The notes: generated from the letters alone by a model not told the origin. A stretch of DNA of 64,000 bases from Candidatus Oxydemutatoraceae bacterium (GCA_965218975.1 OZ244717.1:338347-402346); one strand, 5' to 3'. Positions 3,841 to 31,456 are shown, counted from the stretch's first letter. Translations and numbers: made by a program.

Positions 3841-5814
<1,974 letters not shown>

Positions 5815-5846
5815 CAAGAATCTCATTTAAGTTTCTTGAGTTAACT

Positions 5847-13700: not shown

Positions 13701-15981
13701 CCCGCGTATTCCGTAGCTATATGCTACGGCCTCATTGAAGCTCTACGGTGATCTGACCGAGCACTTCCAACTCAGCGTATTCCGTAGCTATATGCTACGG
13801 CCTCATTGAAGCTACGCAGCGGTACGGCGTCTCGGAGCCGCACACTTGGGTATTCCGTAGCTATATGCTACGGCCTCATTGAAGCGAGGCAGCTTTGTCC
13901 ATTTGCTGGAGCCGCACGCGGTATTCCGTAGCTATATGCTACGGCCTCATTGAAGCCGGTGTAAAATCATCCATCAAAATAACGGTCTTGCTGTATTCCG
14001 TAGCTATATGCTACGGCCTCATTGAAGCTCATTGACTCGGGATATGGACGTCCTCGATTCTTTAGTATTCCGTAGCTATATGCTACGGCCTCATTGAAGC
14101 TATGCAAAAGATACCGAAGAATACAATAATTTGAAGTATTCCGTAGCTATATGCTACGGCCTCATTGAAGCTTTGAAGATCAATATGTATTCAATCGTTA
14201 AGTTGGGGTATTCCGTAGCTATATGCTACGGCCTCATTGAAGCACATTGGATAGTGCTGCGATTGAGCCTTTTATGAGAGGTATTCCGTAGCTATATGCT
14301 ACGGCCTCATTGAAGCCCATTCTCCAAAGCTGCCGCGAGAAACCCGTTCCCGCGTATTCCGTAGCTATATGCTACGGCCTCATTGAAGCCTCACTGCCTT
14401 CGTTTCCTTCCAGCATAATTACAGCGTATTCCGTAGCTATATGCTACGGCCTCATTGAAGCTATATTTTTTTTCTACATCTTCCATGTTTTATCTCCGTA
14501 TTCCGTAGCTATATGCTACGGCCTCATTGAAGCGCGGATGATAATTTGTGCAATTCCCTCATTTGCCTTAAGTATTCCGTAGCTATATGCTACGGCCTCA
14601 TTGAAGCCCGGAAGTTAAAGTCCCCATGTCCGCAGTTAAAGCGGAGTATTCCGTAGCTATATGCTACGGCCTCATTGAAGCGGCTCGGCAATTTCAGTCA
14701 TCAAATCTTTATAACTCGTATTCCGTAGCTATATGCTACGGCCTCATTGAAGCATGATGGTGTTTTAGCACCGTCATGAATGATGTTAAGTATTCCGTAG
14801 CTATATGCTACGGCCTCATTGAAGCTTGTTGCAGTATTTATTTTTATCTCGCTTGTCATGTTGTATTCCGTAGCTATATGCTACGGCCTCATTGAAGCTG
14901 GTAAGCACATTCGACTCAACCATGGCTTTCCTCACGTATTCCGTAGCTATATGCTACGGCCTCATTGAAGCTGTGTGGCGGAATGTCCCTTTTGGGTATA
15001 GTTTATCCGTATTCCGTAGCTATATGCTACGGCCTCATTGAAGCAGCGAAGAAGCCGATGAGGCAGGCGTATATATAGTGTATTCCGTAGCTATATGCTA
15101 CGGCCTCATTGAAGCGACCGCTGTAACTACGACCTGTCACATTACATAATGTATTCCGTAGCTATATGCTACGGCCTCATTGAAGCGGTGCTTTACTCAC
15201 GCATTCAAGGAATCCGGCGCATGTATTCCGTAGCTATATGCTACGGCCTCATTGAAGCAAATCTCCGTTGTTGTGGTGCCGGCAAGAGCGCCGGGTATTC
15301 CGTAGCTATATGCTACGGCCTCATTGAAGCAACCTTTGCATCTGGGGATAAAAAACAGTACTGGAATGTATTCCGTAGCTATATGCTACGGCCTTATTGA
15401 AGCATTGCAAATCATCCATATACGGATAAGGAAACAAAGTATTCCGTAGCTATATGCTACGGCCTCATTGAAGCTTTGGCTTCTATTGTTCTGCGCGGTT
15501 CGGGTACGCATGTATTCCGTAGCTATATGCTACGGCCTCATTGAAGCCCAACTATTTGGTCAACACCTATCAACCCAGAAATAAGTATTCCGTAGCTATA
15601 TGCTACGGCCTCATTGAAGCGACTCAACGCTAATGACGCATACGGCAAAGCCGGATGTATTCCGTAGCTATATGCTACGGCCTCATTGAAGCGGCGTTGG
15701 GTAAATCTCAGCTAGTGCGTAAAGTGCACGTATTCCGTAGCTATATGCTACGGCCTCATTGAAGCGATTTTCTAAGTCAGGAAGCTCCAACCCGCAACAT
15801 AGGTATTCCGTAGCTATATGCTACGGCCTCATTGAAGCAAGCCGCTGTTATATCGAGTGGTCAAGGAGTGAGTGGTATTCCGTAGCTATATGCTACGGCC
15901 TCATTGAAGCTTTTCGTTATTGGGACGCAAGTCATTCCAGGAGACGTATTCCGTAGCTATATGCTACGGCCTCATTGAAGC
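10750..15981 (+). CRISPR. CRISPR array: 73 copies of the 36 bp repeat GTATTCCGTAGCTATATGCTACGGCCTCATTGAAGC and 72 spacers of 35-38 bp
   Basis: I located every repeat start by hand: first at 10750, last at 15946, with periods of 71-74 bp. The repeat has an internal hairpin, CCGTAGC-TATAT-GCTACGG, and ends in ATTGAAGC. One variant repeat at 15368-15403 has C>T at 15395. The leader and cas2 lie at the 5' side. Confidence 0.97.
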
Positions 15982-16010: not shown

Positions 16011-16901
16011 TCAACGTTCACCACTGAATAAAGCCTCTTGAATGTCGCCTTGAATACAATTCTTCACGCCATTCGCATTTCTTTGTTTTGTATTTTTAAC
16101 AGGTTTCCTAAGTGGTTGCCCATTATGTTCAAGATACCCAAGAACTCTCCGCAAGCCAATTTCAACATGCTTTTGTGATCTTTCAATACCGATGCTTTTT
16201 CTACCTAATGTTCGTGCAACTGCATTAGTAGTAAATGCTCCTGCAAACGGGTCAAGAATTATATCTTCTTTATTTGAACTTGCTTGAACAATTCTTTGAA
16301 GAAGCGTTTCAGGTTTTTGGGATGGATGATCTTCATATTCATCCATCTTGTAACGTACTCGAGGAAAATACCAAACATTTCCTGGAACTTTTTTCGTATT
16401 ATAAATCGTTGGAATCTTTTTTCTGTAGTCAATAAGTTTACGTTTAGCCCCCGTTTTAGCTTCTATAGCAATTGTGTCAGCGTTAAAAGTGTAATTATCA
16501 AGATCTTTCACACAGAAAAGAATCGGTTCATACATGGAACCATAATATTTTTTCGCTTGCACCCCCGAACTATCATATGACCAAATAATTCTGCTAAGTA
16601 TGTTTATTCTCTTTCTCAATATAATATCTATGTAGGGCATAGCTTGGGTGCTTGTCATCACATACATAGAGCCTTGAGATGAAAGTTTATCAATACAAAG
16701 AGTTAACCATTTCTCACACCATTCAGCATACGCTTCATCAGAAGGCCATTTGTCATCAAATCCATCAAAGCGTTTCCCAATGTTGTAAGGGGGATCAGCA
16801 AATATCAAATCAATTGAATTATTAGCAATTTTATCGCGTAATACTTCTATTGCATCGCCTTGGTAAATGGCATGATTTTTTATTTCGTATTTTTTAATCA
16901 T
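16011..16901 (-). CDS. DNA methyltransferase, beta-class N6-adenine/N4-cytosine type (DPPY)
   Basis: Motif IV, IFADPPYNIG, lies near the N-terminus. Motif I, LDPFAGAFTTNAVA, lies near the C-terminus, giving the beta-class order. The start is 4 nt downstream of the IS1595 transposase stop. Confidence 0.8.
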   Translation of the reverse strand: MIKKYEIKNHAIYQGDAIEVLRDKIANNSIDLIFADPPYNIGKRFDGFDDKWPSDEAYAEWCEKWLTLCIDKLSSQGSMYVMTSTQAMPYIDIILRKRINILSRIIWSYDSSGVQAKKYYGSMYEPILFCVKDLDNYTFNADTIAIEAKTGAKRKLIDYRKKIPTIYNTKKVPGNVWYFPRVRYKMDEYEDHPSQKPETLLQRIVQASSNKEDIILDPFAGAFTTNAVARTLGRKSIGIERSQKHVEIGLRRVLGYLEHNGQPLRKPVKNTKQRNANGVKNCIQGDIQEALFSGER

Positions 16902-16905
16902 TAAA

Positions 16906-17826
16906 TCAAGCTACCAATTGTTCATAAGTAATCGTCTTCCCAACCATGGCCTTAAAGAGATCATCAAGTCTGTCCTGTGTATCACGTTTCACATTGCCTT
17001 CATTAAGTCTGAATGTAAACTCATTTACATATTGTTGACAATGCTTCTTGCTCCAATTGTGGTAAACACCATTGAAGCCACGTTTAATCACTGACCATAC
17101 AGATTCAACTCCATTAGTATGCGCCATCCCGTTAACATATTCTCTTGCTGAATGTTTTACGCTTTCATGCTGATAATAGTCGCCTCCAATATCTTTATAA
17201 CCCTTGTGGTCATCCGTATAAATGGTGGTACCCACTTCAATGTTAGCAAGAACAGCACTATGAATAGTAGCCTTGTCTTCACCTTCAACTGGCATAGCTT
17301 TTACACGGCCTTCCCGTTCTCTCATACCCAGCACAGCCTGCTTTCCCACAGTACCGCGTCCGGCCTTGAGTTTCTTATGAGAGTGTTTATTCTTTTCAGC
17401 CCTACCAATATAGGTGGCGTCCATTTCCACTTCACCACTCAAGGCTTCAAGATTGTTGCCGCAAGCTAAACGTAGCCTATGCAGCATGTACCAGGCTGTC
17501 GGATAGCTAACGTCCAGTTCCTTGCTTAATTGCATGGCGGAAATACCTTTACGGGCGGTCATAAGCAGATACGCTGCAAATAGCCACATACGGGCATCAC
17601 GCACCCTGTTATGTTCAAGTGGGGTTTCTGTGAAAGCATTGAAATATCCGCGACAATCGCCGCACCAATAACCTTTCTTGTAGTTCTTTTGCTTGGTGAT
17701 TCTGCCGGTACAGCCGCATTTGACACATACAGGCTTAGTTCCCCATCTAAGCTGCTCAAGCTTCGGCAAAAATGTTTTCAAGGGCAATTTCATAATTGGA
17801 CTCTTTTGGCGATAGACCCCGTTCAA
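16906..17826 (-). mobile_element. IS1595-family transposase gene (intact)
   Basis: The N-terminal zinc ribbon is CVKCGC....WCGDCRGYF. The ISXO2-like DDE core is TIYTDDHKGYKDI...HESVKHSAREYVNGMAHTNGVESVWSVIKRG..GVYHNWSKKHCQQYVNEF.FR. The probable start is MKLPLKTF at 17793. I could not define terminal inverted repeats confidently. Confidence 0.8.
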
Positions 17827-18193
17827 TTGATTTATTGCGGGTCACGCCCCGTGCCTTTAGGCAGGCAACTTTTAGGAGCCACTCATCAACATCCGGAATC
17901 CATTGTTCCTTTGTATCCGAAGGCAGCAGAAAAAGTCTTTGCTTCCCACCTTCGAGAAAGGGACTTTGTAAATTGTCACGTATATTTTTTAAAAGTATAT
18001 CGCTTGCTACAGAATCATCATAAATTTTATGGCACCAATTCCAAATCGGACCAAGTTTATCGGCCTTATCAACCACTTCCCCTGTTTCATCAAGGAGGAT
18101 ACTAACAGGAATTAGCTTCTTGTCGAACGCCTTCTTAGGATCAACAAGAGATTTACCGATTTTGGAATTTCGGTAACGTAATTCTTCCTTCAT
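17756..18193 (-). CDS. Hypothetical protein (145 aa); its 3' end runs into the IS1595 upstream region and is possibly IS-truncated
   Basis: The ORF lies on the same strand as the upstream operon, 105 nt after the 300 aa gene. No recognisable motifs were seen. The last ~13-25 codons overlap the transposase start region. Confidence 0.4.
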   Translation of the reverse strand: MKEELRYRNSKIGKSLVDPKKAFDKKLIPVSILLDETGEVVDKADKLGPIWNWCHKIYDDSVASDILLKNIRDNLQSPFLEGGKQRLFLLPSDTKEQWIPDVDEWLLKVACLKARGVTRNKSIERGLSPKESNYEIALENIFAEA

Positions 18194-18298
18194 CTACCAA
18201 TTTAATCCAATCATGAATTGAGCGTTCTTTATAGATTGTTTCCATAGTCTGTTGTCCTCCTTATCGGAAATACAACCTCTGCATCGACAATTGCAGCT

Positions 18299-19201
18299 TC
18301 AATTCTTTCCATCTTCAGCGGCTTTGACTGCATCAACAACGTCATCAGCAAGTCGACGAAGTTCAACATATTCAAGCACTGCTAGTTCTCGAGAACCGCC
18401 GATAAAGCAAATCTCCCGGCATACATCTAGCACTTTGCCGGCAGGCGGCAGTTTGCCGCTACTTTCATTGTCGTCGGGAAGAAATCTTGTGAGACTCGCC
18501 GCCACGGCTTCTTGGACCGAAGCTATTCCAAAAACGGGATTCCTGGATACCATTGCAGATACAAACCATTCCCAGTGGGCTTTTGTTTGCCGAAGTATTT
18601 TTCCTATCCGGTCTTTCGCTATCCCGGATTGTATCTCGGCTCGCCGAACTAGCCGCTCCCGCCACCAAGCTCTCGCAAACGGACAATCAACAAGAACACT
18701 TTTGTTCCCCCGAACATGAGGCAATCCACCCAGTTGGCGTAGAACCGAACGCACGCAGTTGTCCGTTTGCTCTTTTCTTTTAGGGTTCTCGTTGGCCATT
18801 ATCCTGTCAATACGCTCTGCGCCTGTTTGTGATGCGATCCCATTACTTGCGAGGAAACTCGGTTCGATTCGACCTTCCCGAACGTGGCACATAGTGACAT
18901 GAGTCCAAAATAATGTGCTTGAGGCAATCGACAAAGAAAGGTTATTCCAGAGATCGTACATCTTGGATTCAGTGCTAGCTGGGGGATCCTTGAATTGCGC
19001 CTCGCTCATCTTGACCTGATACAGATCGGGATCAATCAAACCAGAAACCGGAATCTGCTCCATAGTTTTGATGAATGCTTCCCCGTCTCTGATCTCTTGA
19101 AGAAATGCCTCTTGTTTTTCGCTACCTTTCTCGCTAAGCAAATTCGCCCGGAATTTGGCCCACTCTTTGTCGTCAAGACATTTCCAATCAAGTTCACTCA
19201 T
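18299..19201 (-). CDS. Hypothetical protein (300 aa), operon partner of the sulfur-modification module
   Basis: An 8 nt overlap with the upstream gene indicates translational coupling. I cannot assign a family. The conserved-looking core is FWTHVTMCHVREGRI ... RQLGGLPHVRGNKSVLVDCPFARAWW. Confidence 0.6.
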   Translation of the reverse strand: MSELDWKCLDDKEWAKFRANLLSEKGSEKQEAFLQEIRDGEAFIKTMEQIPVSGLIDPDLYQVKMSEAQFKDPPASTESKMYDLWNNLSLSIASSTLFWTHVTMCHVREGRIEPSFLASNGIASQTGAERIDRIMANENPKRKEQTDNCVRSVLRQLGGLPHVRGNKSVLVDCPFARAWWRERLVRRAEIQSGIAKDRIGKILRQTKAHWEWFVSAMVSRNPVFGIASVQEAVAASLTRFLPDDNESSGKLPPAGKVLDVCREICFIGGSRELAVLEYVELRRLADDVVDAVKAAEDGKN

Positions 19202-20087
19202 CTTCGTGCCTCAATGGTGGGGGTACATCATGCGGATAAAGCAGCGTTGCAGCCTCCTCAGGTCTGAAATCCGGATCTTCCCAATTACAATTAGTGCAGC
19301 CTTTCGTTTCCAGATCATTGGCAAGCGATTCTAGAGCTTTGTAACTGCACCATCCTTCTTCACTATCTCCGTCGGAATCCTTGTATTTCCGTTGCAGTGC
19401 AGAAAAGCACGAAGTCACGACATGAGTCATAATGTCCTTGCGTTTATCCGAATAGTGCCCTTTGTCTTGAAGAAAAGTATAAAGAGCTGGACCACAATGT
19501 ACTACGAAGCGGAACGTGTCTCCATCAACAGCCTCTGTATAAAATTGGCCTTGCTTTAAGCTTTCGTCCGACCAAATAGAAATGAGTCCTTGAAGACCTG
19601 ATGCCCCAAGATTAAATACCGGCCCCTGCGCAAGCCAAGCACCCTTCGGAAATATTACTTCCAAACCATTCCAGTCGGGATGTACATCATCCTTTTCAGA
19701 ATCCAGAGTACAGAATATTTCCCGGATGCATACAATTACTGGAGTGAAGTACGGAGGCTCACCAAAGTTTGTGTTATTCCAAGCAATTTCCTGGGTCGGA
19801 TCTTGAGAACACTGAAGTTCCCGATACGCCGAGCGAGGCGCGGCCAAAGAACAAGCATACCGGGCATGTTTTTGCGCAATCAGTCGCTCGACCAGACGGG
19901 CACCCGTCACCGAATGCGTTAGCAAGAAGCGGCTTTTGTCGGAACTAAACCTATGTTGAACCTGACTATGTTGAACCTGATAATTGCCATTCGGGAAGGC
20001 ATCATTGCCTTCCTCAATTGCCGGATAATTACGCGCCAGAATCGCGTTCGCCCCGGGGGCGCTCTTGGCGTTGATGTCGGTATTCAT
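19194..20087 (-). CDS. Hypothetical protein (297 aa), operon partner of the sulfur-modification module
   Basis: There is a 4 nt start/stop overlap with the GHKL ATPase gene. No recognisable catalytic motif was seen. Confidence 0.6.
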   Translation of the reverse strand: MNTDINAKSAPGANAILARNYPAIEEGNDAFPNGNYQVQHSQVQHRFSSDKSRFLLTHSVTGARLVERLIAQKHARYACSLAAPRSAYRELQCSQDPTQEIAWNNTNFGEPPYFTPVIVCIREIFCTLDSEKDDVHPDWNGLEVIFPKGAWLAQGPVFNLGASGLQGLISIWSDESLKQGQFYTEAVDGDTFRFVVHCGPALYTFLQDKGHYSDKRKDIMTHVVTSCFSALQRKYKDSDGDSEEGWCSYKALESLANDLETKGCTNCNWEDPDFRPEEAATLLYPHDVPPPLRHEDE

Positions 20088-22051
20088 TCTGAAGTGCTTA
20101 TGGTGGGCTTAGTATCATCGGAGGGTCTCTTGCCAATCTCCACTCGGAGACTTGCTCCGGATTGGATAGGGACACCATCGGCTGCCAGTTTATATTCGGC
20201 CTCTACTTCGGTCGTAGTATTCTTTCCAAGATTGCCCAGCAAAATAGCAGGATAGGGTTTGGTAATTATTCTATCCGGCTGAATCGTTTTTCCATTGACC
20301 TTCGCCGCGGTGATTGCGGCAACACGATCAGTCCATATACGCTCAGTCGTTACATCCGAATGATCATCAACAACGAGACGGAGTTCCAGATCTTCACAAG
20401 GCTCAATGCAATGGATCCGGATTTTCCGGCGATTTGAAGCCGATGGAGTAACAACGATCTTAAAATATTGCGGCAAGGTCGGCCTTTCCCGAGAGCCGCT
20501 CCGGCTACTTTGCCGTCTTTTCCCGGTATTCTTGCTTCGGCCCTTGTTCCTGCCACCTGTCGTTCCCCCGGGCCCTGTTTCATGTGGTCGCCGTGAGGAT
20601 ATCCGTCTCTTAATCAGCGCGATTGTGCCCTGATATTCCCGACCGGCTTTTTTTCCTTGTCGGCTTCCGGCGGTGCTATCAGGGAAGACCAAGAAGTCGT
20701 CAGGGCTATACTCGTCAGAAGTAAGTTTTGGTATTACCTCTTCGATTTTCTTTTTAATCACATTAAATGCCTGACGTAGCTGCTTCCAGTCCTCGTTGCT
20801 GATAGCCTTCTTATCAAGCCGATTGTGTAGAGGCCCCTCAGCTTTTCCAATAAGATCGTGGAACCGGCGGGGCGCGCTCTTTGCGGAAACCAGAACCAAA
20901 CCTTCAAAGGCCTCATAGTCTGCAAAGTTAAAACCGGGAATGTTGCCGGTAATCCACATACCGTTCCTGCAAAGATTTACTCGCGTTCGCCCTGAAGGCG
21001 CCGGATGCTGAACGAAAAGTCTTACCGAGCCATCCAGGACCTCAACTTCATGGCGATAACCTCCTCGGTAGGCTTGATAGGCAAAAAATGCCTGTTCGCC
21101 CGGGAGATAGTCCTTTTTCCGTTTTTGTTCCCGATATTTCTCCAGAACAGTCTGCAACTGCTCACTCGTAAGTTCCCGCTGGGGCTTATTGCCCTCGCCT
21201 TCAATAACCACCTCGAGCTGCCCATCAGCTATTGCGACAAAAAAACTACAGGCAATAGCCTCCGGTACGGTATCAGATAGAAAATCCTTATCCTTACTAC
21301 GAAAACGGTTGAATGCAGGAACGATAACGGCAGTCCCATGTCCGGAATCCTTCTCAATATCCGCCAAAGCGTTTTTAATCAATATCGGAAGGTCATTTCC
21401 CCACGGGTATATGTATTCTCTTTTTTTGCGATCAACCAAGTAATAACCGTTAGCGCTCCGCCCTGTGTCGTCGCTCTGGTTAGCATAATGGGATGCGAGA
21501 ATTGCGTGGCCGCTTGCAATCCGTTTCCCGTTGCAAATACCACCGTAGAGTACATACCTGAGATCTGAGGCGGGAAATAACGAAAAATGCCCAACGCCGA
21601 AGGTACCGGACGCTCCACTTTCCTTGCGACTTCTGCCGTCCGACAATAATGCCGTCATTCTGTCTTTGTCGAGGCCAATACCATTGTCCGAAACAATAAG
21701 TGCCTGCTGCCAATCTTGTGATAGCGCTTCAGAGATTCTGTCAGCCACAATTTGCTCCTGATCATTGAGCGAACCGTTGTTTTCCTCCTCACGCCTTTTC
21801 ACTGCTTTCTTAAAAGCGGATTTATAACTCTCAATTCCAGGTATATCTTCGGTTTTTACCTCCGTAGTAGAAAAACGTACTATAGCCCTAGCCTCACGAA
21901 CCCCAGTGTAATGGAGGGCGGCGGCGGCATCCAGAGAATTTTGGATCAGCTCGCGCACAATTGCGAACGAACTCATCTCTCGGAAGCTGCTAATGCTAGC
22001 AGCCGTAAATCCGTAAGAGTCACTCGATTTGAAAAAATAAAGATCTGTCAT
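20084..22051 (-). CDS. GHKL-superfamily (sacsin/Hsp90-like, HATPase_c_3-type) ATPase with a basic low-complexity linker
   Basis: Bergerat-fold motifs are present: N-box FAIVRELIQNSLDA, G1 box VSDNGIGL and G2 box GASGTFGVGHFS. The C-terminal third contains an R/K/S/G-rich stretch (RNKGRSKNTGKRRQSSRSGSRER). A 4 nt overlap with the desulfurase gene stop indicates coupling. Confidence 0.75.
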   Translation of the reverse strand: MTDLYFFKSSDSYGFTAASISSFREMSSFAIVRELIQNSLDAAAALHYTGVREARAIVRFSTTEVKTEDIPGIESYKSAFKKAVKRREEENNGSLNDQEQIVADRISEALSQDWQQALIVSDNGIGLDKDRMTALLSDGRSRKESGASGTFGVGHFSLFPASDLRYVLYGGICNGKRIASGHAILASHYANQSDDTGRSANGYYLVDRKKREYIYPWGNDLPILIKNALADIEKDSGHGTAVIVPAFNRFRSKDKDFLSDTVPEAIACSFFVAIADGQLEVVIEGEGNKPQRELTSEQLQTVLEKYREQKRKKDYLPGEQAFFAYQAYRGGYRHEVEVLDGSVRLFVQHPAPSGRTRVNLCRNGMWITGNIPGFNFADYEAFEGLVLVSAKSAPRRFHDLIGKAEGPLHNRLDKKAISNEDWKQLRQAFNVIKKKIEEVIPKLTSDEYSPDDFLVFPDSTAGSRQGKKAGREYQGTIALIKRRISSRRPHETGPGGTTGGRNKGRSKNTGKRRQSSRSGSRERPTLPQYFKIVVTPSASNRRKIRIHCIEPCEDLELRLVVDDHSDVTTERIWTDRVAAITAAKVNGKTIQPDRIITKPYPAILLGNLGKNTTTEVEAEYKLAADGVPIQSGASLRVEIGKRPSDDTKPTISTSE

Positions 22052-23202
22052 GCTACTGCTACTCCTTCACCAAACTGCCGTTCAAACGCAAGAGCGGCAA
22101 GCATAATATCCTCCTCTGTGGTAAACCGGCCTAGGCTAATACGGACCGCCTGAAGCGCCGACAAAGGCGGTTGTCCGAGGGCCGTTAAAACATGAGACGG
22201 TTCAACCCCTCGTGACGAACAGGCAGAACCCGTTGAAATCGCCACGCTCCCTTCAAGCCCGGCAATTACTTCATCTCCGGATATCCCCGGAAACGACACA
22301 TTTAAACTTCCCGGTACACGTTGATATTTGTGCCCGTTCAGTTGAAGCCCTGGCGCGCTTTTCTGCAGTAACTGCCATAGCCGGGAAGTCAGTTTCCTGA
22401 TACGTAACGAATCCTTTTCTGTCTCATTCAACGCAATTTCACATGCCGCACCAAAGCCAACAACGAGATGTACGGGCAAGGTGCCGGGACGTAAGCCGCG
22501 CTCCTGACCACCTCCTGTAGCAACCGGCCCGATGCGATCAAAAGTATCGTTGTGGACATAGAGGACCCCAATCCCCATCGGGCCATATACTTTGTGCGAG
22601 GATAACGACAACAGGTCGATTCCAAGCGAATCGACATCAATTCCTATTTTTCCGGCGGCTTGGGTTGCATCCGTATGCATTAACGCACCATGCTCATGGG
22701 CAATCGACGCAATCTCGGCAACCGGATGAACAACTCCAATTTCGTTATTAACCAGCATAGCGGATACTATCGCAGTCTTATCGCTGATCGCATCTTGCAT
22801 TTCGTCCATATCCATAATGCCGTCCGGATTCACCCCGATCTTGCGGATAGGAACTCCATCCAAACCCAATGCTCGAACTGTTTCCAAAACTGCCGGGTGC
22901 TCGGTAGCTACAGTAATAATCTCGTTACGGCCAGTGCTTCTCTTGATCGTGCCTCGAAGCGCAATGTTGCAGGATTCCGTTGCGCCGGAAGCAAAAATAA
23001 TTTCTTGGTCGTCTGCGCCTAACAGGGCAGCTACCTGAGCACGACCTTCAGCTACGGCCCGCGCCGCATTCCATCCATAGGCATGATGGATTGCATGGGG
23101 ATTCCCAAAACGCTCTTGCAGAAAAGGCTGCATGGCATCTCGAACCCGGGGGTCAAGCGGAGTGGTGGCCTGGTAGTCCAGATACACCGGTGCAGAAGCC
23201 AT
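22048..23202 (-). CDS. Cysteine desulfurase (NifS/IscS/DndA class, PLP-dependent)
   Basis: VYLDYQATTPLDPRV is at the N-terminus. The PLP-lysine motif is SSHKVYGPMGIGVLYV and the active-site cysteine loop is STGSACSS. The probable start is the ATG at 23202 (MASAPVYLDY), 4 nt after the upstream stop; the listed ORF extends to 23274. Confidence 0.9.
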   Translation of the reverse strand: MASAPVYLDYQATTPLDPRVRDAMQPFLQERFGNPHAIHHAYGWNAARAVAEGRAQVAALLGADDQEIIFASGATESCNIALRGTIKRSTGRNEIITVATEHPAVLETVRALGLDGVPIRKIGVNPDGIMDMDEMQDAISDKTAIVSAMLVNNEIGVVHPVAEIASIAHEHGALMHTDATQAAGKIGIDVDSLGIDLLSLSSHKVYGPMGIGVLYVHNDTFDRIGPVATGGGQERGLRPGTLPVHLVVGFGAACEIALNETEKDSLRIRKLTSRLWQLLQKSAPGLQLNGHKYQRVPGSLNVSFPGISGDEVIAGLEGSVAISTGSACSSRGVEPSHVLTALGQPPLSALQAVRISLGRFTTEEDIMLAALAFERQFGEGVAVA

Positions 23203-23206
23203 ATGT

Positions 23207-24568
23207 TTAGTCAGTGCAATCACATGGCAACATGGCCTTGGTTTCAGTGAGCGCTTGGACTCCGCGGTCCGCAATGTTTCGGTAAGTCATCTTGCTGTTC
23301 GTTCCAAAGAAACCGACTGTACCGTCAATGCCTCGTTGTTCTGCTGTCAAATCCCGAGTGTAGGTATCCTCTATACGAGCCCACCAAGCGACATCCATCG
23401 GTGTGTTCTGCTGACTGTTAGGTAAATCTGCCTCGCATTCCGAATGAATACTCTCATAAACCTTAGTCAGGTTTGATGTTCCCTTGAGAAAACAGTAAAC
23501 ACAATTGGACAGATGCCCGGTCGCGGGGAGTTTCAATTCAAAATCCTTGTTTTTCCGCCAGAATGCCTTAACGTCTTCTTTTTTTACACACATGTCTGAA
23601 AGCGGCATATAGACATGTTCTCCTTCATACTCCCGAACCTCAGAACTGCCCGAGATTCTCGCTTCGACACGTTGCACACGTGCCTCTTCATCTCCCCTCA
23701 ACCCGATAAAAGCGACATATTGCACTCCACCCTCGCCAAATACAGCATTCCCCCCATACGCTTTCCCATCCAAGAGCTTACTGTCCATGGCGTCTGATGC
23801 TGTCGAAAAATCCTTATAACGTTGCTCCGGACGACATACCGGCTGTGACATCACAAATTTCTTCTTGGCCAGAAAAATATCTCTTGGGACCCCGCCATTA
23901 TTGCGACGGTGGCGTTGATAAAGCGTTTCCTCATCAACCTGGGGCTTATTCTCCCAATGGCCAAGACGAGGAATGATTTTTTTGCAGGCCAGCCAGTCGC
24001 GCAGAAACATTCGTGTTGTCTCAAGTTTCAGAGTTGCTGTGCAGGTCCGGCGGAACTGGTTGGGAACATACCCTGACCACGACAACATCTCCTCAAAGAC
24101 CTCGCCCCTCCAGCAGTAACCATCCGGGTTATTTTCCGAACGAGGCTTGGCATTCACTAGCCGATAGGAAGGCAAACGAGTCCAGTCGCCGTTGCGCACA
24201 TCTTCATAGGTTTGATACTCGATCAGAAAAAATGGAATTCCGTAGCAAGATTCTGCTCGTTTCTTGCATTGGGCTACAAAGTCATAGGTGGCCGGATGTT
24301 CGGCAGCAGTATTGTTAAAGAGTATGACATCACCGCGCTCGGCCTTTAGTACACGGTTTTCCAGCAGAGTAAACAAAAGCATTCCGCTGGATCGACCGCC
24401 GGAGAATTTGACAACGTGAGGAAAATTCTCGTGCCTTTTAGACCGATATCGAAACTGATACTCGAACTCCGGATCGTATTTTTTTGGTTTGCGAAGGCGT
24501 TTCGAAACTACTAGCTTGGGAATTCCTTTTACAGAATGTTTAACAAGATTTTCTACAACGGTCTGCAT
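23207..24568 (-). CDS. PAPS-reductase-fold PP-loop ATP pyrophosphatase (DndC/SspD-like class)
   Basis: The PP-loop is VVKFSGGRSSGMLLF, followed by LFNNTAAEHPATYDF, the CysH/PAPS_reduct pattern SGGxxS...NT..E.P.T..F. C-terminal cysteines are NCVYCFLKG and a terminal LPCDCTD. The gene sits directly upstream of a cysteine desulfurase. Confidence 0.75.
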   Translation of the reverse strand: MQTVVENLVKHSVKGIPKLVVSKRLRKPKKYDPEFEYQFRYRSKRHENFPHVVKFSGGRSSGMLLFTLLENRVLKAERGDVILFNNTAAEHPATYDFVAQCKKRAESCYGIPFFLIEYQTYEDVRNGDWTRLPSYRLVNAKPRSENNPDGYCWRGEVFEEMLSWSGYVPNQFRRTCTATLKLETTRMFLRDWLACKKIIPRLGHWENKPQVDEETLYQRHRRNNGGVPRDIFLAKKKFVMSQPVCRPEQRYKDFSTASDAMDSKLLDGKAYGGNAVFGEGGVQYVAFIGLRGDEEARVQRVEARISGSSEVREYEGEHVYMPLSDMCVKKEDVKAFWRKNKDFELKLPATGHLSNCVYCFLKGTSNLTKVYESIHSECEADLPNSQQNTPMDVAWWARIEDTYTRDLTAEQRGIDGTVGFFGTNSKMTYRNIADRGVQALTETKAMLPCDCTD

Positions 24569-24623
24569 TACGGCCTGCCTCCAAAAATCCGGGAATTATT
24601 AAGATTCGTTGACAAGGACTGAC

Positions 24624-24968
24624 TTATTCAACCTCTTCCATGATTGGTTTTCCCTTGCGACCTACCCGCATTCTAAACTTTCTTTGCAAGTCTTTCTTGA
24701 AAACATAGGTTCGATTAAGAGGGTAAAACTCGTTCATCATCGAAAGTTTAGACATGACAAAAGAGTCTTTATCGTAATTTTCATCAAAATCGCAACCCCA
24801 TCCAAAGCAAACAAACGGCGTCAGAGCCTCATGGTTCATCGCTGCCCTGATGCCTATCAGATTCTTGCCAAGTCGTTCTATAGCGTTTCCTTGTGCCTGT
24901 TTTTTCTTTCCTTCCTGTTCACGTTCCCTATTCGTTCCCTGTTTCTTTATTTCTGAAACAACAATCAA
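24624..24968 (-). CDS. Hypothetical small protein (up to 114 aa)
   Basis: The ORF is on the operon strand between the NPPF methyltransferase and the PP-loop gene. It has a lysine/glutamate-rich N-terminus and no motif. An equally long ORF exists on the opposite strand, so coding status is uncertain. Confidence 0.3.
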   Translation of the reverse strand: MIVVSEIKKQGTNREREQEGKKKQAQGNAIERLGKNLIGIRAAMNHEALTPFVCFGWGCDFDENYDKDSFVMSKLSMMNEFYPLNRTYVFKKDLQRKFRMRVGRKGKPIMEEVE

Positions 24969-25031
24969 TTTGCGGTAGTTGGCATCATTTTCCTTTCTCA
25001 GCCAGATTACCCCGCCATCGGGTATTATTGT

Positions 25032-25781
25032 TCAATCAGTAAACACCAAATCAAACTCATGTCTCTGGCCGGCCCCTTTGATTATAGATGGCTTTGTCGC
25101 TCCGTTTGGAGTCTTTATTCTTGACCTTGTGTTGCGCCGTGTTTTGGCGCAGATCCTCTGCTCTAGCCACTGTAGAAATAATGCCCCTTTTAGCCCATGA
25201 ATATTGAAAATCAAAACTTCACTATGGAATAGAACATCGTTGTATATGTCTTTCGGCAAGGCCACTATAGACGTGATTTCAGGGTAGGTTCCATCTACAA
25301 AACGCATCCAACGCTTGCTATTCAGAGTCTGGTTAAGACGTAACCCATAAGGCGCAAACAAAACAATCGGGATGTTTTTACCAAATAACTCTATCGTTTT
25401 ACGCAACCAGACTTCAAGTAAAAGCGGACGTCTGCCGAATGTTTCCGATACCAACTGTTTTGTTTTTTCTTCAATATTAAAAGGCGGGTTCGCAATGACA
25501 AGTGCGGGTTTTTCCACTTCACCTCTTGAAAGGGAAATAAAATCCCTGACAATCGTGTCGGGAAATCCTTGATCCTCTATGTCAACCCCTTTTGTTTTGA
25601 ACCCCGCTTGCTTAAAAGGGATAAGAAGCGAACCCTTACCTACACACGGGTCAAATACGATTCTGTCGGATTTGATTTTCTTATGAACAATACTAAACAG
25701 GAATTGGCTTAATTCCGGCGGGGTGTAGACTGTGGAGTTCTTTTGCTCCTTGTAAAAGTCGTTGCGGTCAACGCGATACAT
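25032..25781 (-). CDS. N6-adenine DNA methyltransferase, gamma-class (NPPF), compact form
   Basis: Motif I is VFDPCVGKGSLL. About 55 aa later comes motif IV, VIANPPFN. The ATG abuts the stop of the decayed IS1595 transposase (TGAATG). Confidence 0.7.
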   Translation of the reverse strand: MYRVDRNDFYKEQKNSTVYTPPELSQFLFSIVHKKIKSDRIVFDPCVGKGSLLIPFKQAGFKTKGVDIEDQGFPDTIVRDFISLSRGEVEKPALVIANPPFNIEEKTKQLVSETFGRRPLLLEVWLRKTIELFGKNIPIVLFAPYGLRLNQTLNSKRWMRFVDGTYPEITSIVALPKDIYNDVLFHSEVLIFNIHGLKGALFLQWLEQRICAKTRRNTRSRIKTPNGATKPSIIKGAGQRHEFDLVFTD

Positions 25782-26275
25782 TCATGCTACCAGTTTCTCA
25801 AACGTTACGGTCTTCCCAACCATGGCCTTAAACAGGTCATCCGGTTTGTCTTGTGTATCACGAGCAACATTGTCTTCATTCAGGCGAAAGGTGAACTCGT
25901 TGACGTACTGCCGGCAATGCTTCTTGCTCCAATTGTGGTAAACACCATTGAAGCTGCGTTTGATGAGCAACCATACAGACTCGACCCCGTTTGGTATGAG
26001 CCGTCCCGTTCACATACTCTCTGGCCGAATGGTTGACCTTTGCCTTTATACCCCCTGTAATCATCGGTGTAAGGAGTAGAGCCAAGCTCAATGTGCTCGC
26101 GGAATGGCATTGCTGGTCGTTTCATGGTCCTCGGCCCGTATCGGCATGGCCTTTATATGGCCGCCACGCTCCTGCATCCCCAGCACGGCCCGTTCGTCTA
26201 CCGATCCTCGTCCAGCTTTCAGCTTCTTGTCCATGTGCTTGTTCTTTCATTTACGGGCATCCATGAGCTTGTTGT
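25782..26275 (-). pseudogene. IS1595-family transposase remnant (5'-truncated, multiple frameshifts)
   Basis: Pieces in three frames match the C-terminal ~160 aa of the transposase at 16906-17826. Examples are KKLKAGRGS..AVLGM, PYTDDYRGYKG, HSAREYVNG and SFNGVYHNWSKKHCRQYVNEFTFRLNEDNV....DDLFKAMVGKT.T.E.LVA. The DNA is clearly diverged from the intact copy. Confidence 0.8.
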
Positions 26276-26560: not shown

Positions 26561-27040
26561 GTTTTGTGTTTGGTGGCAGATTGTCGGCGGATTGTGCCGG
26601 ATTATTGGTGGATTGTTGGTAGGTTGTGCCGGATTATTAGCAAAGTGCATGTCGTCCATGACGCGACTGGGTTCTGTCAACAAGCCCCAGCCCCGACATC
26701 CTTGTCGGGTCGTTCGCCGCTGAAAACCGTTCGGTTTTCCGGGCGCGGCTTACCCATGACGCGACTGGGTTCTGTCAACAAGCCCCAGCCCCGACATCCT
26801 TGTCGGGTCGTTCGCCGCTGAAAACCGATCGGTTTTCCGGGCGCGGCTTACCCATGACGAGACTGGGTTCTGTCAACAAGCCCCAGCCCCGACATCCCTG
26901 TCGGGTCGTTCGCCGCTGAAAACCGTTCGGTTTTCCGGGCGCGTCTCACCCGACAACGGACAGAAAGCACCGATCCGAATGTTGCTGCCGAATGCTTCCC
27001 CGGAAGCCCTTCAAGAATCCCATTTAGGGTGGCATCGTAC
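26561..27040 (+). repeat. Mosaic intergenic repeat cluster, copy 1: G/T-rich head, three ~97 bp units, conserved tail
   Basis: The head (26561-26657) has GGATTGT/GGATTAT motifs every 9-12 bp. Units start at 26658, 26755 and 26853. Each contains the hairpins CCCGACA-TCCT-TGTCGGG and GAAAACCG-TT-CGGTTTTC. The tail AAAGCACCGATCCGAATGTT...CCCATTTAGGGTGGCATCGTAC runs 26964-27040. Confidence 0.9.
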
Positions 27041-27487: not shown

Positions 27488-27851
27488 TCGTTCGCCGCTG
27501 AAAACCGTTCGGTTTTCCGGGCGCGGCTCACCTGTTTTGTGTTTGGTGGTAGATTGTCGGCGGATTGTGCCGGGTTGTTGGTGGATTGTTGGTAGGTTGT
27601 GCCGGATTATTAGCAAAGTGCATGTCGTCCATGACGAGACTTCGTGCTGTTAATGAACCCCAGCCCCGACATCCTTGTCGGGTCGTTCGCCGCCCGCTAA
27701 AAAAGGTGGCACCGTTCGGTTTTCCGGGGCGCGGCTCACCCATGACGAGACTTGGTTCTGTCAATGAGCCCCAGCCCCGACATCCCTGTCGGGTCGTTCG
27801 CCGCTGAAAACCCCGCTGAAAACCGTTCAGTTTTCCGGGCGCAGCTCACCC
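27488..27851 (+). repeat. Mosaic intergenic repeat cluster, copy 2: partial unit, head, two units, no tail
   Basis: The family and orientation match 26561-27040. The head sequence TGTTTTGTGTTTGGTGGTAGATTGTCGGCGGATTGTGCCGGGTTGTTGG... is followed by CATGACGAGACTT...CCCCGACATCCTTGTCGGG...TTCGGTTTTCCGGG units. Confidence 0.9.
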
Positions 27852-28044
27852 TGCGGCGTCAGGGTGGGCCTTATCCGCACGTAGCGGTCAACCGTATATA
27901 GCGTCAGGCATGCGAGCCGAAATCGGACAGCGCCGGCAACCGATATATCCTCGCATCCCGGTAACATTGCCTGCGCGGACCGCGCAGCTCATTGGGTTAC
28001 AATACCCCGTAGCTAAAAATAAAAAAGGTCTGACTGACAACTAC

Positions 28045-29661
28045 ATGTTTTACCTAGATACGACAACGCCTTTATTTCAAGACAAAGAGAATCAAGACCT
28101 GATTACCATATATCAGGCGAGTGTTTGGATATCAAAGCACCTAAACAAAGAAGTAACCTCCTCCAATATCTCGTATCTAATCCAATACGGAAGGATTGCC
28201 AAATATTCGGAGAACGGGACAACCGCGGTCAGTAAAAACGAGCTGGTCAATTACTATAAAGGCTTTCTTCAGGACCGGGAAAGTGTTTGGAAGAATAAGC
28301 TCGGGGACGACCTAAACTGGAATCTTTCATTCGACTTCCTCAGAGAGAAAGACACAACGAAGCATGTGCATCGATTTCATCCCTACAAGGGGAAGTTTAT
28401 CCCTCAATTAGTTGAGTATTTCTTGGATGGCCACACGGATGAGTTTAAAAAAGAGGCCTTTTTCCAAACCGGGGATATTGTTTTAGACCCGTTCTGCGGC
28501 AGCGGAACAACGCTGGTGCAAGCAAACGAACTCGGAATGCACGCCGTCGGCGTTGACATTTCAGCTTTCAATACTTTGATTGCCAACGTAAAAATAGCGA
28601 AGTATGACCTCAACGAGCTGCGCAACGAACTGAGATGCATAGGCCTTTTACTTCGGCGGAAAACATACGATTCTCCGAATATTGAGTTTGAAAGAGAATT
28701 GTCGGAAGCGTTAAACGTCTTTAATAAAAACAACTTTCCGACACCGGATTTCAAAAGAAAGCTTCGGGTAAAGGAAATAGATGAAAAAACTTATGCCTGC
28801 GAAAAAGAGAAGGAATTTATGCCTGCTTATGACAAATTGGTTAAGAGGCATCGTATTCAAATTAAGCAGACTAAAACCGGCCGTTTTACGGACAAGTGGT
28901 TTTTGAGGCCCGTAAAGGATGAGATAGAGTTGTTGCTCAAACAAATCAGGGAAGTCAAGAATGAGCGCATCAGAAAAATCTTGGAAATCGTTTTAAGCAG
29001 AACCGTTCGGTCGTGCCGAGCTACGACCCATGCCGACCTGGCCACCTTGAAAGAGCCCGTAACAAAACCGTATTACTGCAAAAAACACGGCAAGATTTGC
29101 AAGCCCTTGTTTTCTGTCCGGTCGTGGTGGAAGAGATACGGTGAGGACACTTTAATCAGGATTCAGGCATTTAATACTCTGCGCACTGAAACCAAACAAA
29201 TCTGCCTGCAGGGAGATTCGAGAACAATAAACTTGATTGATCGCCTGCCGGGGAAAGAGAAGCGCCTTGCGGGACTTATAAAAAGCAAAGGAATAAACGG
29301 CATATTTACCAGTCCTCCTTATGTCGGACTGATTGACTACCACGAACAGCACGCCTACGCATACGACCTATTTGGCTACAAAAGAAACGACCGGCTTGAA
29401 ATAGGCCCCCTGTCCGAAGGGCAAGGCGCTATAGCAAGACAAACTTACTCGGAGTCAATTGCCGAAGTGCTACGAAATTGCAGAAAATACCTTGCGAAGG
29501 ACTTTAATGTTTTTCTTGTCGCGAATGATAAATACAACTTGTATCCATCAATCGCCAAACTTGCCGATATGCGCATAGCGAATACGTATAAGCGACCGGT
29601 TCTTAACCGAACGGAAAGGGATAAAGGGGCTTATTCGGAGATGATATTTCACTTGAAATAA
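28045..29661 (+). CDS. DNA methyltransferase, N4-cytosine/N6-adenine type (SPPY), alpha-class motif order
   Basis: Motif I, LDPFCGSGTTLVQA, lies ~270 aa upstream of motif IV, FTSPPYVGLIDY. The probable start is the ATG at 28045 (MFYLDTTTPLF); the listed ORF starts at 27910 in GC-rich repeat-flanking sequence. The gene is AT-rich. Confidence 0.8.
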   Translation: MFYLDTTTPLFQDKENQDLITIYQASVWISKHLNKEVTSSNISYLIQYGRIAKYSENGTTAVSKNELVNYYKGFLQDRESVWKNKLGDDLNWNLSFDFLREKDTTKHVHRFHPYKGKFIPQLVEYFLDGHTDEFKKEAFFQTGDIVLDPFCGSGTTLVQANELGMHAVGVDISAFNTLIANVKIAKYDLNELRNELRCIGLLLRRKTYDSPNIEFERELSEALNVFNKNNFPTPDFKRKLRVKEIDEKTYACEKEKEFMPAYDKLVKRHRIQIKQTKTGRFTDKWFLRPVKDEIELLLKQIREVKNERIRKILEIVLSRTVRSCRATTHADLATLKEPVTKPYYCKKHGKICKPLFSVRSWWKRYGEDTLIRIQAFNTLRTETKQICLQGDSRTINLIDRLPGKEKRLAGLIKSKGINGIFTSPPYVGLIDYHEQHAYAYDLFGYKRNDRLEIGPLSEGQGAIARQTYSESIAEVLRNCRKYLAKDFNVFLVANDKYNLYPSIAKLADMRIANTYKRPVLNRTERDKGAYSEMIFHLK

Positions 29662-29669
29662 AAAACAGA

Positions 29670-30455
29670 ATGGCACTTGATGAACGACAAATAACAGGAA
29701 TCGGGGGCACTATAAGGGAAAGCCTAAGGAATAAGCTCAGCAATTATAAACCCGAGACAAACCACATGCCCTTTCACTACAGATTGATCGGTAAAGACAG
29801 AATGGCGTTGTTTTCTTTTATTCACTCTCTGAATACAACCTTCGGAACTTCTATCTTTGAACCTGCGGCAGAAGCTTTGGCGAAACCGAACTTCCGGTCC
29901 GTAAACAAACAATACGAAGTCGGCAATAAAATCAGCAAACGGTCCCAGTCCGAAATTCAGAGCATTATCAATGATCTTACAACCGGAAAAGACCCGGATA
30001 AAAAAGCAGAGAGCGAAAGAATAAGAAAAGTATGTAACAGCGGCAGTATGGAAGAACTACAAACTGTAAAAGTAGATTTATACGCTCAAAGTTTTGACGG
30101 AGTAGTCCATTTGTTCAACCTGAAACCCGCCAAACCGAACATTAGCGACTTCAAAGACTTTAAAAGAACCCTGTTAGAGTGGACTGCAATTTTTCTGGCC
30201 AACAATCCACAAGCAAGAGTAAATTCATATATTGCCATCCCCTACAATCCTTATGAACCGAAACCTTACGAGAGATGGACCTTAAAAGGAATGCTAGACT
30301 TGGAAAATGAACTGAAGGTTGCGGAAGAGTTCTGGGATTTTTTAGGCAGCGAAGGCACTTACGAGGACTTGCTCGGATGCTTTGAAAAAGTGGGAGTCGG
30401 AATGAAGGAAGAGATAAGCGATTATTTCCAGAGATTTAATCAGGTTTTAATATGA
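29670..30455 (+). CDS. Probable type II restriction endonuclease partner (TdeIII-like by recollection)
   Basis: A 261 aa ORF starts 9 nt after the methyltransferase stop and has the same AT-rich composition. It has an acidic/lysine pattern (VKVDLY...FNLKPAKPN). The family call rests on memory of TdeIII-family annotations and was not verified. Confidence 0.5.
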   Translation: MALDERQITGIGGTIRESLRNKLSNYKPETNHMPFHYRLIGKDRMALFSFIHSLNTTFGTSIFEPAAEALAKPNFRSVNKQYEVGNKISKRSQSEIQSIINDLTTGKDPDKKAESERIRKVCNSGSMEELQTVKVDLYAQSFDGVVHLFNLKPAKPNISDFKDFKRTLLEWTAIFLANNPQARVNSYIAIPYNPYEPKPYERWTLKGMLDLENELKVAEEFWDFLGSEGTYEDLLGCFEKVGVGMKEEISDYFQRFNQVLI

Positions 30456-31295: not shown

Positions 31296-31456
31296 CCTTG
31301 GATTGTAATCCGAATAATGTTAACGGCGAAAAGATTGTATGGAGCCGCTGTAGTTTACACACTCGGTGTTGCGCGGGTGTCCTCTGCGGGATTGACCCGC
31401 CCGCGAGGCAAAGTCAGGCTCCTGCGGGAGCTTCAAAGCAGCCGAGACACAACGGG

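Follow-up and report, generated by a model that had tools for sequence, protein, structure and literature searches.

A 64,000-nucleotide stretch of the genome of a Candidatus Oxydemutatoraceae bacterium (GCA_965218975.1, OZ244717.1:338347-402346; hereafter, the window) carries a cassette of five adjoining genes that probably acts as the modifying arm of a defence or epigenetic system dependent on modification, most likely by placing a phosphorothioate-type mark on the bacterium's own DNA. The cassette encodes a PP-loop enzyme, a cysteine desulfurase, a GHKL ATPase and two further proteins, and is apparently an undescribed case of sulfur-based DNA modification linked to restriction, outside any named family. 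An earlier reading of the window, made from its sequence alone, had proposed a Dnd/Ssp-like sulfur-insertion system with a non-canonical gene set, encoded by an operon of eight minus-strand genes in a defence island. Analysis of gene neighbourhoods in related genomes upholds the sulfur-insertion system and its unusual gene set, and reduces the operon to its five central genes.

The eight minus-strand open reading frames (ORFs) were assigned the labels A to H, in the 5' to 3' order of the coding strand, and all eight are present in the window (Table 1). The close spacing that the sequence-only reading had described among the five central genes was reproduced. The stop codon of C (23207-23209) is separated by a 4-nt gap from the ATG of D at 23202 (the D ORF as listed extends to an upstream TTG at 23274), the D/E and E/F junctions each consist of a 4-nt ATGA overlap, and F and G overlap by 8 nt. 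C was confirmed to carry SGGRSS, CxxC and a C-terminal CDC, D to carry SSHK and STGSACSS, and E to carry ELIQNSLDA, DNGIGL and GTFGVGH. A scan of 17600-26000 for promoters and terminators gave counts not above those in shuffled sequence.

A conserved cassette centred on a PP-loop enzyme

Related loci were collected by running a profile of C against one genome per species (185,579 species representatives), which yielded 202 relatives. The neighbourhood counts given below rest on the best 80 of these 202 (L001-L080), each taken with 10-kb flanks, and the presence of the window proteins in these loci was scored by tblastn. All 80 contained C, and 78 contained E, 75 F, 74 G and 73 D; the genes that were present always lay on one strand with the order C-D-E-F-G (about 74 of 80 genomes). 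None of the 80 loci contained A or B, and H gave only short partial matches, in 12 of them. The conserved unit is five genes, C-D-E-F-G, on the minus strand at 18299-24568, and ORF clustering revealed no conserved extra ORF inside it among the 80 loci. An operon of all eight genes was rejected because A and B lack a counterpart in these loci and belong to a decayed EcoRI-like restriction-modification (R-M) system (see below); the proposal stands for the five central genes, which recur together.

The association extends to more distant relatives. Four divergent, stand-alone relatives of C (L084-L087; 33-37% identical to C) were scanned with profile hidden Markov models (HMMs) of E, F and G, and all three were found beside C in each of the four. 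L087 encodes C-E-F-G, L086 the same set with E fragmented, and L084 the same set followed by a complete GmrSD_N plus GmrSD_C gene, with a different order in L085 (E..F..G-G-C-D). That C-E-F-G are kept together at 33-37% identity suggests that they are the invariant core of the system and that D is optional.

C belongs to a family of more than 1280 homologues; its profile retrieved 179 of 1.84 billion representative proteins at E <= 1e-30 and 807 at E <= 1e-10. The SGGRSS motif and six cysteines (C101, C176, C356, C359, C449 and C451, which include the CxxC and the C-terminal CDC) are invariant, in agreement with a PP-loop enzyme that may bear an Fe-S or persulfide site. When 22 aligned family members were scanned against PADLOC and Pfam models, all 22 matched SspD weakly and partially (best E 6.6e-11; 4e-7 for the window protein, in which only profile positions 72-104 of 277 were aligned) and BrxP weakly (best 5.4e-7; window protein 1.1e-5). 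Five of the 22 reached DndC models, at ~2e-3, and 19 matched Pfam PAPS_reduct (best E 3.6e-4). The window protein itself had no match to DndC models at E <= 0.1, and its similarity to PAPS_reduct (E 0.01, 16.3 bits) fell under the 22.5-bit cut-off, leaving no Pfam match at the default threshold. No other PP-loop families were reported for C in Pfam, PADLOC and NCBIfam scans, and neither the single sequence nor the profile matched anything in the PDB. As judged by these profiles, C appears to lie outside the known families of phosphorothioate writers.

Three C relatives (P0324, P0321 and P0314) are fused at their N terminus to a C5 cytosine DNA methyltransferase. In P0324 (L082:10001-12472), residues 8-386 form a full Dcm domain, in which the PCQ and ENV motifs are present, and residues 394-801 form the C-like domain. 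The gene lies in a mobile-element-like region of a 1.5-Mb circular contig, among ParA, Rep/Rep3, pRha, topoisomerase, SSB, secretin and T2SSE/pilus genes, with none of D, E, F and G beside it. P0324 therefore looks like a mobile-element-borne, single-protein DNA modifier. A fusion of D to C had been considered as an account of the 820-850-residue C relatives and was rejected, as BLASTP against D was negative and the extra domain is the C5 DNA methyltransferase. Fusion to a DNA methyltransferase indicates that the substrate of the C family is probably DNA and is, among the sequence comparisons made here, the best single argument for action on DNA. It also suggests that target selection for C is supplied by its companion: the methyltransferase domain in the fusions, and E-F-G elsewhere.

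D matches Pfam Aminotran_5 (7.5e-82) and the PADLOC models of SspA (2.2e-140) and DndA (2.5e-140). Its scores against NCBIfam IscS, DndA and NifS all lie under the equivalog cut-offs (for DndA, 3.4e-118 and 395 bits against a cut-off of 480 bits), and it is equally IscS-, NifS-, SspA- and DndA-like. D is missing from 7 of the 80 loci and also from L084, L086 and L087. By these matches and this distribution, D is an ordinary class-V cysteine desulfurase, the presumptive sulfur donor and an optional member of the cassette; DndA and SspA are described as dispensable in known systems (PMC12914056).

E comprises a GHKL N terminus, a basic low-complexity linker (approximately residues 470-530) and a conserved C-terminal domain. 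Its Bergerat residues E34, N38 and D41 (N-box, ExxxNxxD), D122, G124 and G126 (DxGxG), and G149 and G152 (G-rich lid) are invariant in 35 sequences, as in members of the GHKL superfamily. E matches PADLOC PDC-M33A over residues 11-520 (1.1e-36) and an NCBIfam sacsin-type domain (4.8e-8), with weak matches to Pfam HATPase_c_3 and to NCBIfam sacsin and Hsp90 models. Against the PDB, the E profile gave weak matches to Hsp90, MutL, MORC3 and Topo VI-B that were confined to the N-terminal ~130 residues, and no relative was detected there for the remaining ~500 residues (basic linker and C-terminal domain).

F resembles PADLOC PDC-M33B weakly and in its N-terminal half only (1.1e-6), and the beta-sandwich core of its AlphaFold model (predicted local distance difference test score, pLDDT, 70) matches FN3/Ig-like domains only. 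G belongs to Pfam DUF6339 and is rich in invariant Arg and Trp, with the motif DCPFARAWWRER. Its all-alpha model (pLDDT 94.4; predicted template-modelling score, pTM, 0.91) had no relative among PDB folds; G would thus add to the cassette a confidently predicted fold without a solved relative. Neither a nickase fold nor a nuclease fold was recognised in E, F or G. The sequence-only reading had suggested that the proteins without recognisable motifs supply nicking or restriction functions, a role that draws no support from the Ig-like beta-sandwich matches of F or from the all-alpha fold without PDB relative in G. C, E, F and G showed no mutual similarity. F and G were considered as paralogues and this was rejected: BLASTP and hhalign found no similarity between them, and their merging in single-linkage clustering was due to fused or over-long ORFs.

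Two evolutionary patterns bear on the role of these three proteins. Mean pairwise identity is 57.6% for C and 57.0% for D, compared with 39.9% for E, 42.2% for F and 45.6% for G. In a metagenome-assembled genome (MAG) of Gammaproteobacteria (L066; OZ244031.1, 3875-19241), three full E-F-G triplets plus an F-G fusion ORF (8157-9980) surround a single C gene, and there is no desulfurase; the array looks like a set of multiplied specificity modules sharing one catalytic enzyme. The faster divergence of E, F and G and the presence of these triplets fit a specificity or targeting role for E-F-G.

Restriction-type partners, hosts and transfer

Partner genes were found by clustering all ORFs of the 80 loci and scanning representatives, within 10 kb of the cassette. 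At least one recognised partner (GmrSD-like, PbeA/PbeC homologues or DndB) was present in 49 of the 80 loci. A GmrSD_N/DUF262 gene of ~600 codons occurs in 26, in 13 of which it lies directly after G on the same strand, and in 10 loci the GmrSD_N gene is inserted within the operon, between C or D and E. The presence of restriction-type genes inside the operon argues for functional coupling rather than mere co-residence in a defence island. Intact GmrSD-like genes are found in L002 (at 16294-18111), L008 and L084, L023 has an additional divergent GmrSD_N gene after G, and one lies directly after G in L081, the closest relative of the window cassette (E, F and G 67-74% identical, D 78%). The DUF262 partner scores higher on the PADLOC HEC-05 and Orf5 models than on SspE.

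A PbeA-like gene is found in 16 of the 80 loci, co-oriented with the cassette and within 4.5 kb in 14 (PADLOC PbeA 4.8e-151 in L005). A PbeC homologue clustered with it was called in nine loci (6.5e-45 in L005), and in L005 (at 2513-9652), L021 and L040 a PbeA/PbeC-type cassette stands directly upstream of C. PbeA is a helicase-nuclease and PbeC an SMC-like ATPase. Small genes the size of PbeB and PbeD beside these homologues had no PADLOC match, and the window contains no Pbe homologue. DndB (Pfam 1.1e-32) is present in nine loci, always within 2.5 kb. DndCDEA is known to be accompanied by PbeABCD and DndB, and Ssp systems sense phosphorothioates through SspE, a DUF262 protein (PMC6459918, PMC9239217, PMC12914056). 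Run on the 80 loci, the neighbourhood comparison thus bears out the earlier proposal, in that the cassette is conserved across phyla and coupled to PbeA/PbeC, DndB and DUF262/GmrSD genes.

Two unannotated families also recur beside the cassette (in L005, L010, L012, L015, L016, L033, L046, L079 and others). One, of ~492 residues with a weak Methyltransf_23 match, was found in 13 loci, where its gene usually separates G from the PbeA/PbeC-type genes; the other, of ~179 residues, occurs in nine loci and is always paired with DndB.

As named in their genome records, the hosts of the 80 loci belong to at least 12 phyla and include Alpha- and Gammaproteobacteria, Binatia, Latescibacterota, Gemmatimonadota, Chloroflexota, Acidobacteriota, Verrucomicrobiota, Spirochaetota, Rhodothermales, Thermodesulfobacteriota, Nitrospinota and 'Entotheonella'. 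C is 51-62% identical across these loci, and such identity over at least 12 phyla suggests that the cassette moves horizontally. Many of the records name sponge-specific taxa (Poriferihabitaceae, Porifericomitales and Entotheonella) or sponge or coral MAG series; from these names, the cassette appears to reside mostly in MAGs of sponge or coral symbionts. A tblastn search of 72,556 plasmids with C gave no match, and the profiles of C and E found no relatives among IMG/VR viral contigs.

The proposed mark and rival readings

In the mechanism that we propose, D would take sulfur from cysteine as a persulfide and hand it to the cysteine-rich C, which would use ATP to adenylate a target DNA oxygen and then exchange that oxygen for sulfur, the same chemistry as that of DndC, SspD, BrxP and TdpC. 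E, F and G would replace DndD/DndE or SspB/SspC, with E serving as an ATP-driven dimerising clamp of the MutL/MORC/Hsp90 class and all three proteins finding or preparing the DNA target and recruiting C. A partner (GmrSD-like, Pbe-type or other) would read the mark, and this restriction arm would be exchangeable between genomes. In the window, the restriction arm would have been a GmrSD-like gene that has since decayed. With its reader or restriction gene dead, the cassette would act there as a solitary modification module; dnd modification modules are reported to be often solitary (PMC10853773). A backbone phosphorothioate is favoured because the only detectable relatives of C are phosphorothioate writers and because PbeA/PbeC homologues accompany the cassette.

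Several points weigh against this proposal. Both the modification of DNA and the phosphorothioate identity of the mark are read from genes, and the matches of C to SspD, BrxP and DndC are weak and partial. No recognised partner lies within 10 kb in 31 of the 80 loci. The PbeB and PbeD models were unmatched, and the evidence therefore covers PbeA and PbeC homologues but not the full PbeABCD set; neither GmrSD-type nor DndB-like (ParB-fold) proteins are confined to phosphorothioation. The roles suggested for E, F and G draw on analogy and evolutionary pattern, and the model of F is of moderate confidence only (pLDDT 70). A nicking activity is part of the known Dnd and Ssp systems (DndD and SspB), and no fold of a nickase or nuclease was recognised in E, F or G. 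Finally, the Dcm fusions could equally indicate modification of a flipped-out base.

This last point is central to the alternative in which the same DNA-acting machine thiolates a base (for example, 2-thio-dC, thio-dT or thio-dG), as TtcA, TtuA and ThiI do on tRNA, and makes no backbone phosphorothioate. The C5 cytosine methyltransferase to which C relatives are fused looks intact (PCQ and ENV in P0324) and would flip cytosine out. The GmrSD family, which is known for sensing modified bases, is the commonest partner, and C appears to stand outside every known phosphorothioate-writer family. We nevertheless regard base thiolation as unlikely. To our knowledge, no natural thio-base occurs in DNA; the only detectable profile relatives of C are SspD, BrxP, DndC and PAPS_reduct; and 16 of the 80 loci are flanked by PbeA/PbeC homologues, which have so far been reported solely alongside phosphorothioate systems (PMC6459918). 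We see a similarly small chance that the mark is chemically new, being either a thiolated base (for example, 2-thio-deoxycytidine, at which the C5-methyltransferase fusions hint) or a sulfur adduct other than an Rp phosphorothioate, made by a machine unlike those of known systems, with a GHKL clamp and a protein whose fold has no solved relative, and spread horizontally through sponge and coral microbiomes as niche-specific epigenetic immunity.

It is improbable that the cassette performs a housekeeping or biosynthetic sulfur insertion (tRNA or rRNA thiolation, a thio-cofactor or a symbiont natural product) and lies in a defence island by chance. Pathways of tRNA thiolation and of thio-cofactors likewise have a PP-loop enzyme and a cysteine desulfurase at their core, natural-product genes abound in sponge symbionts, and one divergent locus, L085, is surrounded by respiratory and housekeeping genes, with a TusA gene ~7 kb away. 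Against this, the cassette is patchy and horizontally transferred (about 55% identity across at least 12 phyla, in about 200 of 185,579 species representatives), 10 loci have DNA-restriction-type genes within the operon, a DNA methyltransferase is fused to C relatives, and E and F match a PADLOC defence-candidate family.

More improbable still is that the cassette is a diverged member of SspABCD, DndABCDE, BREX type 4 or Tdp whose unassigned proteins are unrecognisable homologues of SspB/SspC or DndD/DndE. Such descent would explain why D scores as SspA/DndA, why C weakly matches SspD, BrxP and DndC, and why DndB, PbeA/PbeC homologues and DUF262 partners are shared with known systems. None of the eight window proteins, however, matched DndD, DndE, SspB (DUF4007), SspC, BrxC, PglZ or BrxL in Pfam, PADLOC and NCBIfam scans, in line with the earlier remark that no SMC-like DndD, DndE or SspB is visible, and the profile-HMM comparison did not place the gene set as a whole in the canonical SspABCD or DndABCDE families. 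E has invariant Bergerat motifs of the GHKL type and is not a P-loop ATPase like DndD, SspC and BrxC, G is a DUF6339 protein without PDB relative, F matches Ig-like sandwiches only, and C had no match in 72,556 plasmids. Tdp needs TdpC only (PMC12914056), whereas C-E-F-G co-occur at deep divergence.

Set beside each known system in turn, the cassette shows both likenesses and differences. SspABCD performs single-strand DNA phosphorothioation, and SspE is a DUF262 nuclease that senses the phosphorothioates. The cassette shares with them a cysteine desulfurase, a PAPS-reductase-fold ATP pyrophosphatase and an ATPase, a DUF262-family protein is its commonest downstream partner, and SspD is the best profile match of C. 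It lacks SspB (DUF4007) and the P-loop ATPase SspC, its ATPase being of the GHKL type, it has two extra unrelated proteins (F and the DUF6339 protein G), and the SspD match is weak and partial. The sequence-only reading's other suggestion, a divergent Ssp-type module, finds no support here. With DndABCDE, which carries out double-strand phosphorothioation, the cassette shares a DndA-type desulfurase and a cysteine-rich PP-loop enzyme, and PbeA/PbeC homologues co-oriented in 14-16 loci and DndB in nine recall the R-M systems in which DndABCDE is accompanied by DndFGH or PbeABCD. As reported for dnd, the modification module is often found on its own. It has no SMC-like DndD and no DndE, and no DndC-grade match of C was obtained (five of the 22 members scanned reach DndC models, at ~2e-3). 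DndE is short and could escape detection, yet the cassette has no conserved unassigned small ORF.

BREX type 4 (brxPCZL) was shown in 2026 to write phosphorothioates (PMC12914056), and a cysteine desulfurase accompanying it has been described (PMC12839542). Its PAPS-reductase-domain protein BrxP is the second-best profile match of C, but the cassette lacks BrxC, PglZ and BrxL, and C is not fused to DUF4007. In TdpABC (2025), TdpC alone writes phosphorothioates via an adenylated intermediate (cited in PMC12914056). The stand-alone Dcm-C fusion in L082 suggests that C, like TdpC, may be the sole dedicated catalytic enzyme. TdpA and TdpB appear to have no counterpart in the cassette, and those stand-alone C relatives without a Dcm fusion that were examined keep E, F and G nearby.

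The remaining likenesses concern E and F. PDC-M33, an uncharacterised two-gene defence candidate in PADLOC, corresponds to E (PDC-M33A) and F (PDC-M33B), which are adjacent with a 4-nt overlap, but as modelled it has no PP-loop enzyme, desulfurase or DUF6339 component. E shares its invariant Bergerat ATP-binding motifs with the DNA-acting GHKL ATPases (MutL, MORC/paraMORC, Topo VI-B and the Hsp90/sacsin class), although only its N-terminal ~130 residues match. Least credible of all is a defence without a mark on self DNA, in which, for instance, C would act as an abortive-infection effector through nucleotide depletion or adenylation set off by a GHKL sensor: PDC-M33 is listed without C or D and an ATP-pyrophosphatase activity could in principle deplete ATP, but the dedicated cysteine desulfurase in 73 of 80 loci, the six invariant cysteines of C, the coupling to GmrSD-family, PbeA/PbeC-like and DndB genes and the Dcm fusions point to a sulfur mark on DNA.

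Four phosphorothioate-writing gene families (dnd, ssp, tdp and brxPCZL) are counted in a 2026 paper (PMC12914056), whose survey for new writers required a P-loop NTPase beside a DndC or SspD homologue; a GHKL-based set would have been invisible to it by design. Comparative-genomic reappraisals of Dnd (PMC10853773) and BREX (PMC12839542) make no mention of GHKL, and the searchable literature, which excludes subscription-only papers, contained no description of the gene set, PDC-M33 or DUF6339. Standard annotation does not recognise the cassette as a writer. If it does write phosphorothioates, it would be a fifth, mechanistically distinct solution beside these four families, in which a MutL/MORC-class clamp and two unknown proteins select the target, the least understood step of phosphorothioate biology. 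An enrichment of DNA phosphorothioation genes, 'even though not functionally complete', was reported for sponge metagenomes by Horn et al. (2016; PMC5099237), and unrecognised writers beside PbeA/PbeC-type, DndB and DUF262 genes could account for it. With the Dcm-C fusions, biochemical work would have a minimal, single-protein form at its disposal, which might also serve for programmable DNA sulfur labelling.

Decayed neighbours and other features of the window

Table 1. Genes and other features discussed in the text, in window coordinates
Feature	Position	Strand	Matches or remarks
A, N6-methyltransferase ORF	25032-25781	minus	
B, small ORF	24624-24968	minus	
C, 453-aa PP-loop (PAPS-reductase-fold) enzyme, candidate DNA sulfurtransferase	23207-24568	minus	
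D, 384-aa class-V pyridoxal-phosphate (PLP) cysteine desulfurase (IscS/NifS/DndA/SspA type)	22048-23202	minus	ATG start
E, 655-aa GHKL (Bergerat-fold) ATPase	20084-22051	minus	
F, 297-aa protein	19194-20087	minus	beta-sandwich core, then helices
G, 300-aa all-alpha DUF6339-family protein	18299-19201	minus	
H, 145-aa ORF	17756-18193	minus	remnant of GmrSD-family gene
GmrSD-family pseudogene (DUF262, SspE-like architecture)	17756-18245	minus	tblastn/BLAST against ~600-aa GmrSD_N proteins after G
Decayed EcoRI-like R-M system, outside the cassette	24624-25781	minus	Pfam EcoRI 1.2e-4; PADLOC REase_II 1.5e-5; alignment to EcoRI chains
IS1595-family transposase gene, outside the cassette	16906-17826	minus	Pfam DDE_Tnp_IS1595 3.3e-43; NCBIfam IS1595 4.8e-57
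IS1595 transposase fragment, C-terminal, frameshifted	25785-26264		
YhdJ-like DNA methyltransferase gene	16011-16901		PRK11524 2.3e-134
CRISPR array	10750-15981		73 repeats
Cas3, GSU0053, GSU0054 and Cas4-Cas1 genes	1087-10243		
Methyltransferase and TdeIII R-M pair	27910-30455		

IS1595 debris now lies on one side of the cassette and a dead EcoRI-like R-M system on the other. H, previously described as a protein without recognisable motifs, proved to be a pseudogene fragment of a GmrSD_N/DUF262 restriction partner: it aligns to residues 128-318 of the L081 GmrSD_N protein, with an internal deletion of ~57 residues. The remnant also includes a 30-codon N-terminal stub with a ribosome-binding site (18153-18245), and it lacks the DGQQR region and everything beyond residue ~318, that is, the C-terminal half. 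The window copy is thus not an intact DUF262 protein with DGQQR and a C-terminal His-Me nuclease domain. The homology runs to 17759, beyond the putative transposase ATG at 17793, and the 5' end of the IS1595 gene overlaps the remnant; by this alignment, the C-terminal half of the GmrSD-family gene was lost at the IS1595 junction.

On the other side, A and B make up one reading frame split by a single TGA (25032-25034), in which the N-terminal part of an N6-methyltransferase is fused in frame to the mid-section of a restriction enzyme. The 3' part keeps the EcoRI motifs PDGG...SEIKKQG (catalytic) and AQGNAIER (recognition, GNAIER). The methyltransferase and the small ORF, which had been counted as operon members, therefore form a separate decayed EcoRI-like R-M system that is absent from all 80 related loci.

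Flanking IS1595 transposase genes had also been reported on both sides. The copy beside H is near full length, but the copy beside A is only a frameshifted C-terminal fragment, and the two are 55% identical at the protein level. A composite transposon bounded by two IS1595 copies was rejected. Each transposase gene has a co-oriented DNA methyltransferase gene within 3-5 nt of its 3' end (the YhdJ-like gene for the near full-length copy and A for the fragment), and the same pairing is seen in L028 (6405-7420). This may be an IS1595 element with a methyltransferase passenger gene.

The defence-island setting is confirmed, as the CRISPR array, the cas genes and the methyltransferase and TdeIII pair are all located in the window. 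One repeat of the 73-repeat CRISPR array, ~8 repeats from its 3' end (15368-15403), is a variant that scores 38.1 bits with RF01330, compared with 43.1 for all others.

Elsewhere in the window, intergenic repeats of ~67-110 nt with the internal palindrome CCAGCCCCGACATCCTTGTCGGGTCGTTCGCCGCTGAAAACCGTTCGGTTTTCCGGGCGCGGCTCAC occur at 26656-26951, 27629-27851, 51988-52201, 52322-52457 and 54984-55119, often as tandem pairs or triplets, and resemble repetitive extragenic palindromic (REP) or miniature inverted-repeat transposable (MITE) elements. Two neighbouring genes at 30702-32374 are made of 108-nt repeats, and the product of the second gene (31457-32374) is a Sel1-repeat protein (Pfam 2.4e-73). 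Such eukaryote-like repeat proteins are typically found in bacteria that live in association with a host, which fits a symbiont origin of the window. At 52746-54761, an ORF of 671 codons contains 4.9 copies of a 369-nt unit (88% matches), indicating a protein built of tandem domains of ~123 residues.

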